Notes under the pieces: model-generated
Databases searched by the model: none
Told to the model about the DNA's origin: nothing
What the model saw: only the letters and a program-made list of their open reading frames with translations
From: Candidatus Marinacidobacterales bacterium
Lineage (GTDB): Bacteria > Acidobacteriota > Vicinamibacteria > Marinacidobacterales > SMYC01
DNA: 64,000 nt
Direction: 5' to 3'
Assembly: GCA_965224085.1 (NCBI GenBank)
Contig: CBDCYI010000005.1
Span: forward strand, 768,001-832,000
Shown here: piece after piece, positions 31,880 to 36,680 of the stretch
Layout: the number at the start of each line of letters is the position of its first letter
Numbering within the stretch: position 1 is the first letter of the stretch
Translations under genes and position numbers: made by a program

Positions 31880-32041
31880 GATGACTATGGACGAGTTCCG
31901 GTCGGTGAATCCTCTGTCTCGCTTCCGCATTTTGTGAAACTCACGCGTTTAGGTTAAGTTCGGGACGGAGACCGAGACACGCACAAGCACAGCAGCGACC
32001 CGATCGGGTCCGGATTCACGTGGAGATAGAAGAAAAACGCG

Positions 32042-32458
32042 ATGACGGTCCTGCGTCGGTTCGTGGGCGCCCTTTTTGCCGCCGGAGTGCTGGGAATCGG
32101 CATCGAGCTTTGCCTCCTCGGCCATACAGAAGATCGCTGGCAGCTCGTTCCGCTGGTGCTGCTCGGGCTCGGGCTACTCGCGCAGATTTGGCTCGTTTGG
32201 CGCACAAGCGCCGCGAGCGTTCGCGCGTTCCGATCCCTGATGCTTTTATTCGTGCTCAGTGGTTTCGTGGGCCTCTACTTGCACTACAGCGCCAATGTCG
32301 AGTTCGAGCTCGAGATGTATCCGTCGCTCAGAGGACTGAACCTGGTTCGGGAAGCTTTGACCGGCGCGCTGCCGGCGCTCGCTCCCGCGACCATGATGCA
32401 TCTCGGGTTCTTGGGATTGGCGTCTACTTACCGATATCCGAAAGGAGTTACACCATGA
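32042..32458 (+). CDS. hypothetical membrane protein
   Basis: About four hydrophobic helices; ATGA overlap with the next gene. Confidence 0.7.
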   Translation: MTVLRRFVGALFAAGVLGIGIELCLLGHTEDRWQLVPLVLLGLGLLAQIWLVWRTSAASVRAFRSLMLLFVLSGFVGLYLHYSANVEFELEMYPSLRGLNLVREALTGALPALAPATMMHLGFLGLASTYRYPKGVTP

Positions 32459-33099
32459 AAATAAAAGCTTCGCTTGGGTTCGCCATAGCGCTACTCGTCG
32501 CCTTTACCGCCGTGCATGGCGTCGCCCAGGTCGGTAAGAACGACGATGTGGTTAATCCGAACCTCGCCGGGAAAGACGAGCTCCTTCGCCTGGTACATCT
32601 CGACGAGACCCTGGTCGAGTCGATCCTCGAGCGACGTCCGTCCATCGGCATGCTCGATCTCCACGGACTTCTGAAGCAAACCTTGAGCGAGGAAGCGCTC
32701 GAGCAGCTCTACGCGCAACTATTCGTCCCGATCGATCTCAACACGGCGAGCCGTGAAGAGATCCTTCTCGTCCCCGGTGTCGGCCCCCGAATGGCCCACG
32801 AGTTCGAAGAATACCGCCCCTATCAGGCCATGGCGCAATTCCGGCGAGAGATGGGCAAATATGTCGACGACGACGAGGTCGCGCGAATGGAGCAGTACGT
32901 TTTCGTCCCCATCGATCTCAACGCGGCCAGCGAGGAAGACATTCTCACCATTCCGGGTGTCGGGCAACGCATGCTTCATGAGTTCATGGAGTACCGTCCC
33001 TACCGCAGCATCGCACAATTCCGGCGCGAGATCGGCAAGTATGTCGACGACGACGAGCTGAACCGCCTCGCGCGCTATGTGACGCTTCGAACCGAGTGA
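32455..33099 (+). CDS. exported helix-hairpin-helix protein (ComEA/PsbU-like)
   Basis: Signal peptide; two ~60-aa repeats IDLN.AS.E.IL..PGVG. Confidence 0.8.
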   Translation: MKIKASLGFAIALLVAFTAVHGVAQVGKNDDVVNPNLAGKDELLRLVHLDETLVESILERRPSIGMLDLHGLLKQTLSEEALEQLYAQLFVPIDLNTASREEILLVPGVGPRMAHEFEEYRPYQAMAQFRREMGKYVDDDEVARMEQYVFVPIDLNAASEEDILTIPGVGQRMLHEFMEYRPYRSIAQFRREIGKYVDDDELNRLARYVTLRTE

Positions 33100-33278
33100 C
33101 GGACTGTCGAAGGCGCTTTGTTAGATAGGCCTCGCGCGCCACAGCCCGAGCGGTTCTTCTCTCCGTCGTCTCAGTGACATTCCGGCGACGCCCTGTACGC
33201 TTGCCGAAGCATCAGTGCAGCGAAAGCGTGTGTTGCGGGAAGAGTCGGTAGGAAATGTCTGTGTACAAGGCCTCATCC

Positions 33279-33346
33279 CGCGCCTCTGGCGCGAGGCCAG
33301 CATCCTCTCGCGCCTTTGGCGCGAGTCAGTCAGATCGTCTCGCGCC
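33279..33346. repeat. three ~30-bp-spaced CGCGCC-containing repeats, two forming hairpins
   Basis: CGCGCC-TCT-GGCGCG (33279-33293), CTCGCGCC-TTT-GGCGCGAG (33307-33325), half-site TCTCGCGCC (33338-33346). Confidence 0.7.
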
Positions 33347-33511
33347 GGCAAGAAGAGGGTGAACCTGCTGTGCGACAATAGTGAGCCCCAGCCGCTACAA
33401 ACGACCGGGGCTCTGATGTTTGGATGGCCCCCGGAGGAGGCGCTCCACTACAAGTTGAAGCTAGCCTCTCACATCCGGGCGGCCATCGTCCAGCACTTTG
33501 CTGAGTTCCGA

Positions 33512-33925
33512 ATGGCCACCAAACCTGTCGTTCTTCTCCGGCTTTTCTGCCGCAACAAAAGCTGTGGGATGCCTTTCTTCATCTGCAAGTCATGTTACCA
33601 GGGACAGTGCTACTGCGGTCCAACCTGCCGTGACGAAACCCGGCGAGAGAACCAGCGCGAAAATAACCGAAATTACCAGAAAGGTTTCAACTCACGAAAA
33701 CTCCACGCGGCTCGGCAACAGAATTATCGTCTACGCCAGGCGGCGAAAATAGTGACGGAGCAAGGGTTCATTCACCCCAGTAATTCTGGCAGTCTAGGAG
33801 TTCGTGAAATTCAAGCTAGTGGCCCGATGGCTCATTCAATGAAAACGAAGATTGACAGTATCAGATATGCCAAATGCTGTATCTGCGGCCGACGCGGGAG
33901 GCTAAAGGATGTCGAAGCTGGGTAA
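33512..33925 (+). CDS. Cys-rich putative Zn-binding passenger protein
   Basis: CRNKSC...ICKSCYQGQCYCGPTC, basic helix HAARQQNYRLRQ, C-terminal CCICG; resembles small proteins I recall beside IS21/DDE-type transposases. Confidence 0.7.
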   Translation: MATKPVVLLRLFCRNKSCGMPFFICKSCYQGQCYCGPTCRDETRRENQRENNRNYQKGFNSRKLHAARQQNYRLRQAAKIVTEQGFIHPSNSGSLGVREIQASGPMAHSMKTKIDSIRYAKCCICGRRGRLKDVEAG

Positions 33926-34325
33926 TGAACCGCTCACGAGCGATGCTCTGACAGAAAACAATTACGTCCGGACGATTTTGGACCTCTATCTTTCCATTCC
34001 GAACACACCTGAGCGGCCACGGCGCGACGACCGCTTCATCGCGACGCAGCTCTACCGCCAAGGAGTCCCGTTACACGAATTCGAGTGTGCCCTACTTCTG
34101 GGTTGCGCTCGTAGGGAGCTACAAGAACATGAGGAGCCACTGCAGCCCATTCGCTCCCTTCGTTATTTTTCACCTGTGCTCCAGGAAGTGCAAAGTCAAT
34201 ATCTAGACCCGCCTTATGTTCTTTACATTCGAGAAAAACTCTCGGACGTGCTTCGCCCGAAACTACCGAGAAAAAACCGAGCACGAACTCGTGGCATCGC
34301 GCGACAACTCCGATTGCCATGGTAG
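33909..34325 (+). CDS. hypothetical passenger protein
   Basis: Overlaps the previous gene; YVRTILDLY..P.TP.RPRRDDR..A.QLY.QGVP...IRSLRYF.PV..EV pattern recalled from transposon-associated proteins. Confidence 0.7.
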   Translation: MSKLGNEPLTSDALTENNYVRTILDLYLSIPNTPERPRRDDRFIATQLYRQGVPLHEFECALLLGCARRELQEHEEPLQPIRSLRYFSPVLQEVQSQYLDPPYVLYIREKLSDVLRPKLPRKNRARTRGIARQLRLPW

Positions 34326-34369
34326 AGCAAATATCACGATGAGCTTGGACTATTTTCGATTTCGTCAGC

Positions 34370-34510
34370 AGCTTGCCGGCAACGCCATACGTCGCCCTGC
34401 GCTCCTAGCGCCAGGAATGGACATGCGTGCCGGCAATTCTTTTGTGATGGACATCCAGTGGGGAGTTGCGCTTCGAGCGCCAGTACAGGGGCCGATGAAA
34501 CATCACATGC
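34370..34510 (+). ncRNA. putative IS110 bridge RNA (target-binding and donor-binding loops)
   Basis: Two parallel stem-loops (outer stems TTGCCGGC/GCCGGCAA and TGTGATG/CATCACA), each with an inner GCGCT-NNN-AGCGC hairpin followed by CAG and flanked by guides matching the element junctions; exact ends unknown. Confidence 0.8.
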
Positions 34511-34520
34511 GCTGGCGGAA

Positions 34521-35789
34521 ATGAGTTCTTCCATGAATCAACTCAAATACGACTTCTTCGTCGGTATCGACCTGGGTCAATGGCTTCACTTGGCCAGTGT
34601 GGTCGATGCCAAAGGTAACTTCTTGGCGGAGAGAGGCTTCCCCCATAGCCGCGAAGGACTATCGGGAACCATCGACTGGCTTTTGGAAGAGACCTCGCAA
34701 GATACCGAGCGCATCGCGGTGGCGATCGAAAAACCTCATGGGGCCGTCGTCGAGCTCTTTCTTGACCACGGCATCGCCATTTTCTCCATCAATCCCAAGC
34801 AGGTCGACCGTTTCCGCGACCGGCATTCTATGAGCGGCGCCAAGGATGATCGGCGAGACGCCTTCGTTCTCGCCGATTCGCTCAGAACCGACGGCCACCG
34901 CTTTCAGCGCTTGCATCTCCCACCTACGGAGATCCTCGCTATGCGCGGGTTGCTGAGTACCCGCGACCAACTCGTCAAAAACCATGTGGCCCTCAGCTCG
35001 CAGATCCGAGAACTCCTTACTCGTTGCTGGCCTCACCTCGTCTCGCTCGCGCCAAAGGACAAGGCTCTCGACGCTTTTTTCTGCGAGCTCCTAAAACTCT
35101 TCTTCGAATCCAGCCCCAACCCTCTTAGCCGCCACTCCATTGAGACCCTCGCTCAAAAACACCGCATCCGACGTCTAAAACCCGAGAAGATCCTCGATAC
35201 CCTCAAACAAAAACCTCTCCGGGTCGCAACCGCAACCACTCAAGCTACCGCCGAGCATCTCCAACTACTACTCCAGCAGTTGCTCCTCGTTCGACAACAT
35301 CGTCGTGCCTCCGACCAGCATCTCGAGAAGTGGTTCAAGCGCGTGCAAGCACTAACCGACGAGCATTGCTCCGACCCTGCCATTCTTGCCTCTTTGCCCG
35401 GCGTCGGTGCTTACGTGCTCGCCTCCGTGCTCTGCTATGCCCACGACCCCATTCGGCTCCGTAATCTCAACGCCTTCAGGACTCTCGGCGGCATTGCTCC
35501 TGTCACAAAAAAGAGCGGCAAGCGCGGTCAGTTGCGACCAACGATCCTGATGAGGAGAGCTCGCTCTTTGCCCCTCAATAATGCTCTCCACCATTGGGCA
35601 CGCACTGCCGTTTTGCACGACCCCCACTTCAAAGAACACTACGACCGGCTTCGTGACAGAGGCCACAGCCATGCCAGAGCTCTCAGAGGCGTCATGGACC
35701 GCATTCTCCCCATCGCCATTGCGATGCTTCGACAAGGAACCCTTTACGACCCCTCCCGGTGGCCCACAAAAAAAGCGAATCGCGGATGA
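34521..35789 (+). CDS. IS110 family transposase / bridge recombinase
   Basis: DEDD RuvC-like motifs VGID, AIE, KDDRRDA; C-terminal SLPGVG and APVTKKSGK (catalytic Ser); start 34521 or 34533. Confidence 0.95.
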   Translation: MSSSMNQLKYDFFVGIDLGQWLHLASVVDAKGNFLAERGFPHSREGLSGTIDWLLEETSQDTERIAVAIEKPHGAVVELFLDHGIAIFSINPKQVDRFRDRHSMSGAKDDRRDAFVLADSLRTDGHRFQRLHLPPTEILAMRGLLSTRDQLVKNHVALSSQIRELLTRCWPHLVSLAPKDKALDAFFCELLKLFFESSPNPLSRHSIETLAQKHRIRRLKPEKILDTLKQKPLRVATATTQATAEHLQLLLQQLLLVRQHRRASDQHLEKWFKRVQALTDEHCSDPAILASLPGVGAYVLASVLCYAHDPIRLRNLNAFRTLGGIAPVTKKSGKRGQLRPTILMRRARSLPLNNALHHWARTAVLHDPHFKEHYDRLRDRGHSHARALRGVMDRILPIAIAMLRQGTLYDPSRWPTKKANRG

Positions 35790-35811
35790 CTATTACGAAG
35801 AACGTTTTCTC

Positions 35812-35817
35812 TTGATC
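35812..35817 (+). promoter_or_regulatory. outward-facing -35 box (TTGATC) of the predicted circle-junction promoter
   Basis: On circularisation through one CC core it lies exactly 17 bp from TACGCT (33196-33201). Confidence 0.65.
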
Positions 35818-35846
35818 CGGCGTGGGGAGTCCATTCCCCCTAAAGG

Positions 35847-36179
35847 CTAGATTCCGAGCCGTCGCTTGTCTGGAAGCCGGGCCTCTTTTGGAATGGACTT
35901 CATCCACTTGGAGACGCGGGCGACTATCCGGTCTTTGGTTCTCTCTTTTTCAAGCGGGTCTGGCGACTCGTGCAGGTGGATGTCGAGCGCGATCCTGCCT
36001 GCAGCCTCATCTGCGTAGACACTTCTCTCTCGGGACCATTTACCCTTTACTCTCCACAGCCTGTCTCCACCCATCCATCCCTTTTCCTCAACCCATCTTA
36101 GGCTGTGGATTCTCATGAGGCTCACTTCAATTTCTCGCTCAAACAGCTCCCATCGTTCGGGGTCGTAGCTCGTCTTCAA
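35847..36179 (-). CDS. hypothetical protein
   Basis: 110-aa ORF with GAGGAGG upstream; no recognisable motif. Confidence 0.4.
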   Translation of the reverse strand: MKTSYDPERWELFEREIEVSLMRIHSLRWVEEKGWMGGDRLWRVKGKWSRERSVYADEAAGRIALDIHLHESPDPLEKERTKDRIVARVSKWMKSIPKEARLPDKRRLGI

Positions 36180-36385
36180 AACGCCTCCTCGGGAAAACGA
36201 CTGGAGGAGAGCTCACACGCTTGCGCCTTGATCCGCTCAATGCGCCTCGGTCAGCTTGGTCCAGGCTAATTGATTCTCTGACACAACCCTGCAATTTAGC
36301 ATATCTTGTGGTTCTGGCGTTTGGCAAAGAAGTCTTGACAAGAACGTCTTTTTGAGGCACCTACAGCCGTTCCTCTGAGGACCGG

Positions 36386-36680
36386 ATGCAAGGATTCTCA
36401 CTTTTCGAAGCCCAGGCCGGCACCGCCGCACGGCGTTTTCTCTATTCCTCTATCTTTTGGCTGCTGCTTCCGGGGGCCTTTGGCTTGGTTCTCGCGTCGC
36501 TTCTCTATGTGCCCGAGCTTCACGACCGGCTACCCATGGCGGTCAAGCCCTATCTGAGCTTCGGCCGGCTTCGGCCAACCCATGTGAATTTGACGGTTTT
36601 CGGATGGCTTTCGATGGTTTATTGCGGGGCCATCCTTTATATCTTGCCTCGGCTCACGCGGGCGCCGAGGAAAAGCGCAA
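36386..36680 (+). pseudogene. cbb3-type/heme-copper oxidase subunit I N-terminal fragment
   Basis: LSFGRLRPTHVNLTVFGW...YILPRL, after which homology stops and the frame runs into the convergent LysM gene. Confidence 0.75.

Follow-up and report, generated by a model that had tools for sequence, protein, structure and literature searches.

A 2.6-kb IS110-type bridge-recombinase element carrying two additional genes in an Acidobacteriota-like genome

The window analysed here, a stretch of 64,000 nucleotides (contig C5, positions 768001-832000) from a 6.87-Mb assembly of 12 contigs (host genome G000), contains an RNA-guided element of the IS110 type, 2.6 kb in length, of which several near-identical copies are present in this one Acidobacteriota-like genome. 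Coordinates without a contig name are positions of the window. From left to right the element consists of a left terminus, about 320 nt of non-coding DNA, two open reading frames (ORF1 and ORF2), a two-loop bridge RNA, a recombinase gene and a short right end.

The recombinase gene (34521..35789, + strand) encodes an IS110-family DEDD/Ser recombinase of 422 amino acid residues. Its N-terminal DEDD (RuvC-like) domain matches PF01548 over residues 14-171 (E 2.9e-31; profile positions 1-155 of 155), the C-terminal Tnp domain matches PF02371 (E 1.1e-11), with the catalytic Ser assigned by eye in ...VTKKSGKRG..., and the NCBIfam model NF033542 (“IS110 family RNA-guided transposase”) is matched with 162.8 bits against a cut-off of 140. 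Besides the DEDD and Tnp domains, three further hallmarks of the IS110 group were found, namely scarless insertion around a short core, a bridge RNA, and the position of this RNA upstream of the recombinase; terminal inverted repeats are absent from the element, as in the group at large. The bridge RNA is encoded in the left end in the IS110 group and in the right end in the IS1111 group. With 2,639 bp and three genes the element departs from the IS110 norm of about 1.2-1.6 kb and the recombinase as the sole gene, but this norm is descriptive and not a mechanistic requirement. No istA or istB lies within 33194-35832, and what the element shares with IS21 is limited to homologues of ORF1 and ORF2. 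The mechanism is predicted to be bridge recombination of the IS621 type.

Boundaries, copies and an empty site

The mobile unit spans 33194-35832 and comprises 2,637 bp plus one copy of a 2-bp CC core. Three lines of evidence agree on this extent: the boundaries of the copies, an orthologous empty site that is short by exactly 2,639 bp, and the length of 2,639 bp computed from the termini. A previous sequence-only reading of the window had proposed the same unit with the same core and had placed two genes inside it, and both proposals are borne out: ORF1 and ORF2 lie within these limits and, as described below, are real genes. On the left, the left half of the target and the core, CGACGC-CC (33186..33193, + strand), run into the element in the junction CGACGC-CC-TGTAC (33186-33198). 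The non-coding left end (33194..33511, + strand) begins with the terminus TGTACGCTTGCC, which is common to nine copies, and includes TACGCT at 33196-33201, a proposed -10 hexamer. On the right, the right end (35790..35830, + strand) contains TTGATC (35812-35817), a proposed -35 hexamer, and terminates in GGCGTGGGGAGT, a sequence that occurs as a right terminus 11 times in the genome; the second CC core and the right half of the target, ATTCC, follow at 35831..35837 (+ strand), within the junction GTGGGGAGT-CC-ATTCC (35822-35837). This right junction, a 16-mer, occurs once in the window and in none of 100 shuffles.

Copies of the window type (type A) are full-length in four cases, those of the window, C4:1682506-1685158, C11:289307-291953 and C11:626414-629060, of which three are 100% and one is 99.85% identical. 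Two more are internally deleted, one on contig C9 lacking the equivalent of 33840-34013 and one at C5:333078-334701 lacking 34525-35552, and C5:1945120-1946508 and C4:1703792-1704405 are partial. A second subfamily, type B, shares about 85% identity with type A; its own copies, one of them full (C5:1762835-1765452) and three partial, agree with one another at 99.4-99.9%. With a slash marking the edge of the element, full copies are bounded by ...GC-CC/TGTACGCTTGCC on the left and ...GGCGTGGGGAGT/CC-ATxCC on the right, in unrelated flanks, so that the other copies with predicted ends for which the sequence-only reading had called do exist. Alignment of nine left and 11 right junctions gives ...GC-CC/TGTACGCTTGC... 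and ...GGCGTGGGGAGT/CC-AT..., again with otherwise unrelated flanks, and an exact-motif count over the genome returned 11 right termini and, apart from one chance hit, nine true left termini. In all ORF-bearing copies, the partial ones included, the first base corresponds to 33194. At least four moves of the complete unit have occurred.

Insertion is scarless and alike in all copies: a single CC is present in empty sites, a CC stands on either side of the 2,637 bp when the site is occupied, and there is no longer target duplication. The site of copy C11b is empty in two genomes of the same genus, G401 and G404, where the flanks are contiguous, exactly 2,639 bp are absent and one CC is kept. 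It reads ...GTAATAGC-CC-ATATCGCCC... in G401, ...GTAGTCGC-CC-ATATCGCCC... in G404 and, occupied, ...GTAGTAGC-CC-[TGTACGC...GGGGAGT-CC]-ATATCGCCC... in the host genome, with 2,637 bp between the two CCs. The two alignments of the C11b flanks overlap by 5 and 2 bases. For two other copies, C4a and C11a, the flanks gave only paralogous kinase or repeat matches in four same-genus genomes.

Bridge RNA and its guides

The bridge RNA region (34366..34512, + strand), delimited by sequence matches, a consensus fold and the comparison of guides with flanks, lies directly upstream of the recombinase start at 34521. The target-binding loop (loop 1, about 34371-34438) carries the guides CGTCGCCC (34390-34397) and GGAATGGAC (34414-34422), and the donor-binding loop (loop 2, about 34444-34506) carries GTGGGGAGT (34458-34466) and GTACAGGG (34483-34490). 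Direct look-up in the window located every guide and junction string where the sequence-only reading had put it. Loop 2 matches the joined ends, that is the donor GTGGGGAGT-CC-TGTAC, in both halves (9/9 and 8/8, the latter at 33191-33198), and loop 1 matches the target CGTCGC-CC-ATTCC; the right guides run on for 1-2 nt beyond the core, into the half that belongs to the partner (GT of the right end, C of the left target). In each loop, an outer stem encloses, in this order, a left guide, a small hairpin and a right guide. The consensus fold has 30 pairs, 16 of them with compensatory changes, over 11 sources: type A, type B, the copy in the genome G402, the relatives L043 and L108 (whose RNA is the same as that of L043 and thus not independent) and six distant relatives.

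The donor guides are conserved throughout, and the target guides vary together with the flanks across lineages. Type A, with the right target guide GGAATGGAC, has the right flank ATTCC in four of eight junctions and ATACC in none of the eight; type B, with GGTATGGAC, has ATACC in two of three. The right guide of L043 is GGGATGGAC and its flank ATCCC; L047, L046, L056 and L054 combine GGGGGGGAC with CCCCC, and L065 combines AGCGAGGAC with TCGCT. At L048 the right flank fits the guide poorly (2/5). On the left, the majority base at each position of seven type-A flanks spells CGTCGC, which is the loop 1 left guide, and in the G402 copy the left-guide region AACCTCTCCC matches the flank AACCTCACCC at 9/10 positions. 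Four relatives of 1.5-1.7 kb (L047, L054, L046 and L056) sit in runs of C, for example ...GCCCC-CC/.../CC-CCCCCC..., and at L047 the flanks on both sides repeat GCCCTCTGCGCCCC; from these sequences their landing pad looks like a C-rich repeat.

By analogy with IS621, the element would be excised as a circle, the junction of which would rebuild a promoter, TTGATC-N17-TACGCT, whose transcript would cover ORF1, ORF2, the bridge RNA and the recombinase gene. The same promoter-like geometry is found in the modelled circle junctions of eight out of nine elements, with a -35 hexamer that starts 21 nt before the end of the core, a 17-nt spacer and a -10 hexamer in the left end. A junction promoter has been described for IS110 elements (Durrant et al. 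2024, PMC11208160). Terminator-like sites in 33100-35900 number 5, with 2.8 expected.

We put at roughly 90% the probability that 33194-35832 is one copy of an active IS110-group bridge-recombinase element moving as a whole 2.64-kb unit together with ORF1 and ORF2. A number of results pull the other way. The left 13-mer predicted from the guides, with up to one mismatch, occurs once in the window but was also hit in 11 of 100 shuffles; the left junction is thus weak evidence when taken alone, and evidence from outside the window is needed. An empty site that differs by the exact length predicted in the sequence-only reading was found at C11b, but no exact counterpart could be shown for the window copy itself: the element is absent from G402 and G403, and so is 33101-33193. 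No joined right end-left end (RE-LE) junction is present in the assembly, the proposed junction promoter matches the consensus at only 7 of 12 positions, and a promoter scan of 33100-35900 gave no internal sigma-70-like promoter. ORF1 carries a frameshift in two type-B copies, six of 13 junction sets lie outside recognisable kinase genes, and family, fold and complex results assign neither ORF a function. Finally, the case for the bridge RNA rests on covariation: folded as a single sequence, the region does not exceed shuffles in stability (z = -0.8), and an Rfam scan of 32500-36500 at E<=1 returned no match, a result that is uninformative if Rfam has no such model.

Two genes inside the unit

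ORF1 (33512..33925, + strand) encodes a Cys-rich protein of 137 residues with an Arg-rich helix, and ORF2 (33909..34325, + strand), whose start overlaps the end of ORF1, encodes a five-helix protein of 138 residues; neither belongs to a named family. The start of ORF1 is most likely at 33512 (MATKP...), because an IS21-borne homologue aligns from that residue and the open frame upstream in the left end (33215-33415) behaves as non-coding, with a ratio of nonsynonymous to synonymous substitution rates (dN/dS) of 1.06. Conservation argues that both are real genes, since dN/dS between the subfamilies is 0.30 for ORF2 (vs 0.21 for the recombinase), eight Cys residues of ORF1 are invariant across 22 homologues, and homologues with 34-38% identity are found elsewhere. 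The ORF1 family includes 4,081 cluster representatives at E<=1e-3, and 72 homologues of ORF2 were collected. The structural model of ORF1 has a long Arg-rich helix, at low confidence (predicted local distance difference test, pLDDT, 57), and the AlphaFold2 model of ORF2 has five helices (pLDDT 80).

Searches for a function returned little. In Pfam, NCBIfam and PHROGs nothing was above threshold for either protein, and the sub-threshold hits, counted over all alignment members, were to RepB_primase_C in 4/40 ORF2 relatives and to Rhodanese_C in 9/22 ORF1 relatives. In profile searches of solved structures, nothing scored better than E 0.03. At E<=0.001 Foldseek found no counterpart for the ORF2 model, the best E being 1.2 for PDB and 0.24 for BFVD, and matches in the ESM Atlas were confined to “hypothetical protein” clusters. 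A complex prediction for ORF1 with ORF2 scored 0.00, which has no bearing on binding either way. A likeness of ORF2 to the DnaD-type replication-organiser domain was considered and dropped, its sole support being BFVD ranks 8-9 with E 1.1-1.2.

Among 400 genomes of the phylum, ORF2 relatives occur in 23 and ORF1 relatives in 26, often in multiple copies. The gene istB lies just upstream in 24 of the 28 ORF2 loci fetched, and istA just downstream in 16 of the 28 ORF1 loci fetched; several loci come from the same genome, so that these counts are not independent, and each includes one locus (L030, L138) from an unpublished genome, G049, which also enters the two 400-genome tallies. In genome G015, an IS21-type element of 3.39 kb with 41-nt inverted repeats (L152, 1647-5044) has the tightly packed order ORF1-like, istA, istB, ORF2-like. 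The IS21-borne homologues are 34% identical to ORF1 (E 6e-13) and 38% identical to ORF2 (E 2e-19). Such four-gene elements resemble the unit studied here in that homologues of ORF1 and ORF2 are packed with the transposition genes inside the element ends. They differ in their machinery, an istA DDE transposase and an istB ATPase with 41-nt inverted repeats, and in that the two homologues flank istA and istB and are not adjacent to each other. A literature search, judged from titles and abstracts, found no publications on four-gene IS21 elements, and likewise none on IS110 accessory proteins.

A second IS21-type element, of 3.36 kb, lies in genome G385 (L155, 1749-5112). L152 is 99.9% identical to two and L155 to one of the copies fetched from their own genomes, each genome having 7-11 matches. 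In some IS21-type elements the ORF2 domain is fused to an N-terminal helix-turn-helix region. ORF1 relatives at four other loci (L130, L131, L145 and L126) adjoin putative IS256-type transposase, ArdC-like and ParB-like genes, named from motifs by eye, and one of these relatives appears by eye to be fused in frame to a recombinase-like sequence.

We infer that ORF1 and ORF2 are transposon-linked accessory proteins, not cargo of benefit to the host. The sequence-only reading had called the element a cargo transposon. This stands insofar as two extra genes travel with the unit, but adaptive cargo describes the pair less well than accessory genes of a kind common to IS21-type elements. Binding of nucleic acid is probable for ORF1, and our best guess is that both proteins would modulate expression or transposition. 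Ahead of ORF1, the left end contains two 26-nt direct repeats (33270..33325, + strand), spaced 30 nt apart and each containing the palindrome CGCGCC-N4-GGCGCG, which are candidate sites for protein binding. A third, partial copy extends the repeats to 33270-33346; the ORF1-only relative L043 lacks them.

Alternatively, the two genes might be neutral passengers, gained once from an IS21-type element and tolerated without any role in the life of the element, a possibility that we take seriously while leaning against it. Two type-B copies, C5div and C11div, which share 99.9% identity, have a frameshift in ORF1, so that this gene must be dispensable in cis or supplied in trans by type A; neither gene is present at 58 of 60 loci of recombinase relatives, and 1.5-1.7 kb suffices for these relatives. 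Mere passengers would, however, hardly account for the purifying selection on ORF2 (dN/dS 0.30 vs 0.21 for the recombinase), for the retention of ORF1 in a lineage whose recombinase is only 62% identical, or for the recurrence of both families in IS21-type elements of many genera, even with the istB and istA counts above drawn from loci that are not independent.

Targets, growth and known relatives

When the modelled empty sites were translated in antisense, at least seven of 13 junction sets yielded a Ser/Thr kinase N-terminus with its glycine loop and were located at the codons of that loop, GGMG(E/D)VY, as in ...LGPYEILSPVGKGG[M]GEVYKAKDTRLDRTVAIKVL..., and in all seven the element is antisense to the kinase. 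Left flanks match the Pfam model Pkinase from profile position 13 (E 3.3e-32 for C4a, 1e-4 for C11a and 7.3e-45 for L043, which is in another genus); the host genome has 46 Pkinase matches. The target specified by the guide reads GGA-ATG-GGC-GAC-G in antisense, which is G-M-G-D, and the guides of type A, type B and L043 differ (A, T and G) at the third base of the Gly codon (GGA, GGT and GGG), each matching its own flanks. The preferred target is the antisense of the GGMG(E/D)V codons of the Ser/Thr kinase glycine loop, a sequence that a large gene family provides in repeated form. The window copy lies outside any kinase gene, in a target-like site that reads LGGMGV in antisense. The literature search, judged from titles and abstracts, found no publications on IS110 elements that target kinase genes. 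One kinase gene (C11:654476-655213, region to 655230) has 14 nt of the left terminus in place of its glycine-loop codons (...cac-CC-TGTACGCTTGCCGA...), which looks like the scar of an almost wholly deleted copy.

It is improbable that the kinase clustering arose by accident, from sequence composition or post-insertion selection, with a guide not shaped for the motif. Six of the 13 junction sets do lie outside recognisable kinase genes, and the genome retains no perfect 13-mer target and 28 sites with one mismatch. Chance would nevertheless have to produce a guide target that reads as the G-M-G-D codons in antisense, guide differences among type A, type B and L043 that fall on the third position of a Gly codon and follow the respective flanks, an element at the same codons in another genus, and the antisense orientation in seven of seven kinase cases.

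Taken together, the two genes and the guide could be explained by a broader scheme, which we offer tentatively and consider rather more apt to fail than to hold: ORF1 and ORF2 would be a portable pair of transposon cofactors, recruited both by DDE-type IS21 and by RNA-guided IS110 elements, and the guide would have been tuned separately to the kinase glycine loop. If the scheme were true, the element would be the first of the bridge-recombinase kind to bring its own protein partners; the cofactors might act on the left-end repeats or on the long transcript yielding the bridge RNA, or might help to decide between excision and insertion, and the element would be a gene-family-specific disruptor whose guide follows synonymous codon variants.

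The relatives of the recombinase form a size series. One scan of species-representative genomes gave 60 loci. The sequence-only reading had asked whether close homologues carry the same two genes: L059, with a recombinase that is 90% identical and frameshifted, has both, but L043 (62% identical) has ORF1 only, and the 58 others have neither. Its statement that left ends are normally short agrees with our finding that CCTGTAC lies 194-340 bp upstream of the recombinase match in 31 of 38 relatives examined, this check having covered 38 other loci out of 59. Six relatives are 1,496-1,712 bp long, with 62-165 nt from the left end to the RNA; the corresponding values are 2,016 bp and 612 nt for L043, 2,602 bp and 1,136 nt for type B, and 2,639 bp and 1,174 nt for the window copy. 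Because the series runs from 1.5-1.7 kb through 2.0 kb, with ORF1 only, to 2.6 kb, the left end appears to have been enlarged stepwise in this lineage, ORF1 joining first and ORF2 later.

Two further explanations concern the origin of the enlarged left end. That ORF1 and ORF2 are a separate small mobile element, nested in an ordinary IS110 left end and moving independently, might be suggested by the occurrence of homologues of both in other mobile elements; it is very unlikely, as the host genome has no ORF1 or ORF2 copy without the IS110 left terminus, the homologues elsewhere sit inside IS21-type inverted repeats beside istA and istB and not as a free two-gene unit, and L043 has ORF1 alone. 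Less credible still is the idea that the true insertion sequence consists of bridge RNA and recombinase only, with a left end near 34330 and the 1.1 kb containing the ORFs being neighbouring DNA co-copied by duplication or one-ended events: one copy, C4short, begins at the equivalent of 34320, and one-sided half-match events are reported for expanded IS110 loci in a preprint (bioRxiv 10.64898/2026.08.14.744561), but the idea is already contradicted by the empty site, which is short by the full 2,639 bp, and by the counts of termini, all other left boundaries being at 33194, while the donor loop matches 33191-33198 at 8/8 and the ORFs are kept in both subfamilies and in a copy in a same-genus genome. 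C4short begins three bases before the ORF2 stop, lacks CC-TGTAC and adjoins a kinase gene broken mid-domain; its boundary is therefore a truncation, not a second left end, and it is the sole boundary near 34330, where the sequence-only reading had said that a left end would speak against the larger unit.

The element resembles IS621 and the IS110 group in its DEDD and Ser domains, in a two-loop RNA that precedes the recombinase and has its target loop ahead of its donor loop, in a 2-nt core, in scarless insertion without terminal inverted repeats, and in -35 and -10 halves brought together across the joined ends (PMC11208160, PMC11208158). Its right guides cross the core in the manner of IS621 handshake guides (Hiraizumi et al. 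2024, PMC11208158). In contrast to IS621, it is 2.64 kb long with three genes (vs about 1.3 kb and one gene), its RNA lies 1.17 kb from the left terminus, its core is CC and not CT (PMC11208158), its target is a protein-coding motif and not a repetitive extragenic palindromic (REP) sequence, and it is known from sequence alone.

Gene-carrying IS110 elements have already been reported in the preprint, on expanded IS110 loci with cargo (Hu, Xie, Yang and Rubin, August 2026, bioRxiv 10.64898/2026.08.14.744561), and the known mechanism is unchanged by our findings. The preprint describes these loci as grown mostly downstream of the transposase and as including plasmid DNA with resistance genes; half-matches are one-sided and the mobility of the whole unit falls. 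The element shares with them the features by which the preprint defines such loci, namely a length above 2 kb, IS110 domains, no other transposase or integrase and guides complementary to the flanks, and also extra genes and identical bodies in differing genomic contexts. It differs from them in the position of the genes, their identity, the retention of both donor halves, and the target. The additional genes lie on the upstream side, where they separate the left terminus from the RNA; they are transposon-associated orphans; both donor halves match (9/9 and 8/8) and the whole unit has moved, internal half-match boundaries not having been sought systematically; and the target differs as well. 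The words “kinase” and “zinc” are absent from the main text of the preprint, the supplements of which might list similar elements. As for the landing pad, a sequence repeated many times in the genome is reportedly also used by ISPpu9 and ISPpu10 (REP or intergenic repeats) and by IS1111 members (transposon ends); unlike in these, the present element uses a conserved coding motif that recurs across a paralogous gene family, and each insertion into it breaks a gene.

A bridge recombinase can thus move a unit about 1 kb above its 1.5-1.7-kb relatives with the donor halves intact and extra genes between the left terminus and the RNA. The 1.1 kb separating the presumed junction promoter from the bridge RNA raises the testable question of how the RNA is made, and the elements of 1.5-1.7, 2.0 and 2.6 kb are a natural series for the study of element growth. 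Guide and target have co-evolved on a coding motif, with third-base differences of a Gly codon mirrored in the guide, and one genome has had several of its kinase genes disrupted. ORF1 and ORF2 point to two unnamed protein families, that of ORF1 being large, with links to transposons of two classes.

The surroundings of individual copies show some additional features. The type-B copy at C11:764568-766952 ends on the left at the equivalent of 33482, against an inverted 35-nt fragment of the right end, which suggests a rearrangement between two copies. At the window site, G402 and G403 lack, besides the element, 93 bp on the left (33101-33193) and the first 8 bp on the right (35833-35840); an unpublished genome, G427, enters only the tally of the same-genus search for this site. 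The segment 33101-33193 is unique in the host genome and has 76-78% matches elsewhere in G402 (L117, L118), which lie within a structure flanked by inverted GCGCAAAGG-rich repeats. The window copy seems to sit in a small repeat unit, and the approximately 100 bp around it may be a small repeat or miniature mobile element. The left neighbour gene (32020-33099) encodes a helix-hairpin-helix protein (HHH_3, E 2.4e-17); it is uninterrupted and 88-94% conserved in same-genus genomes.

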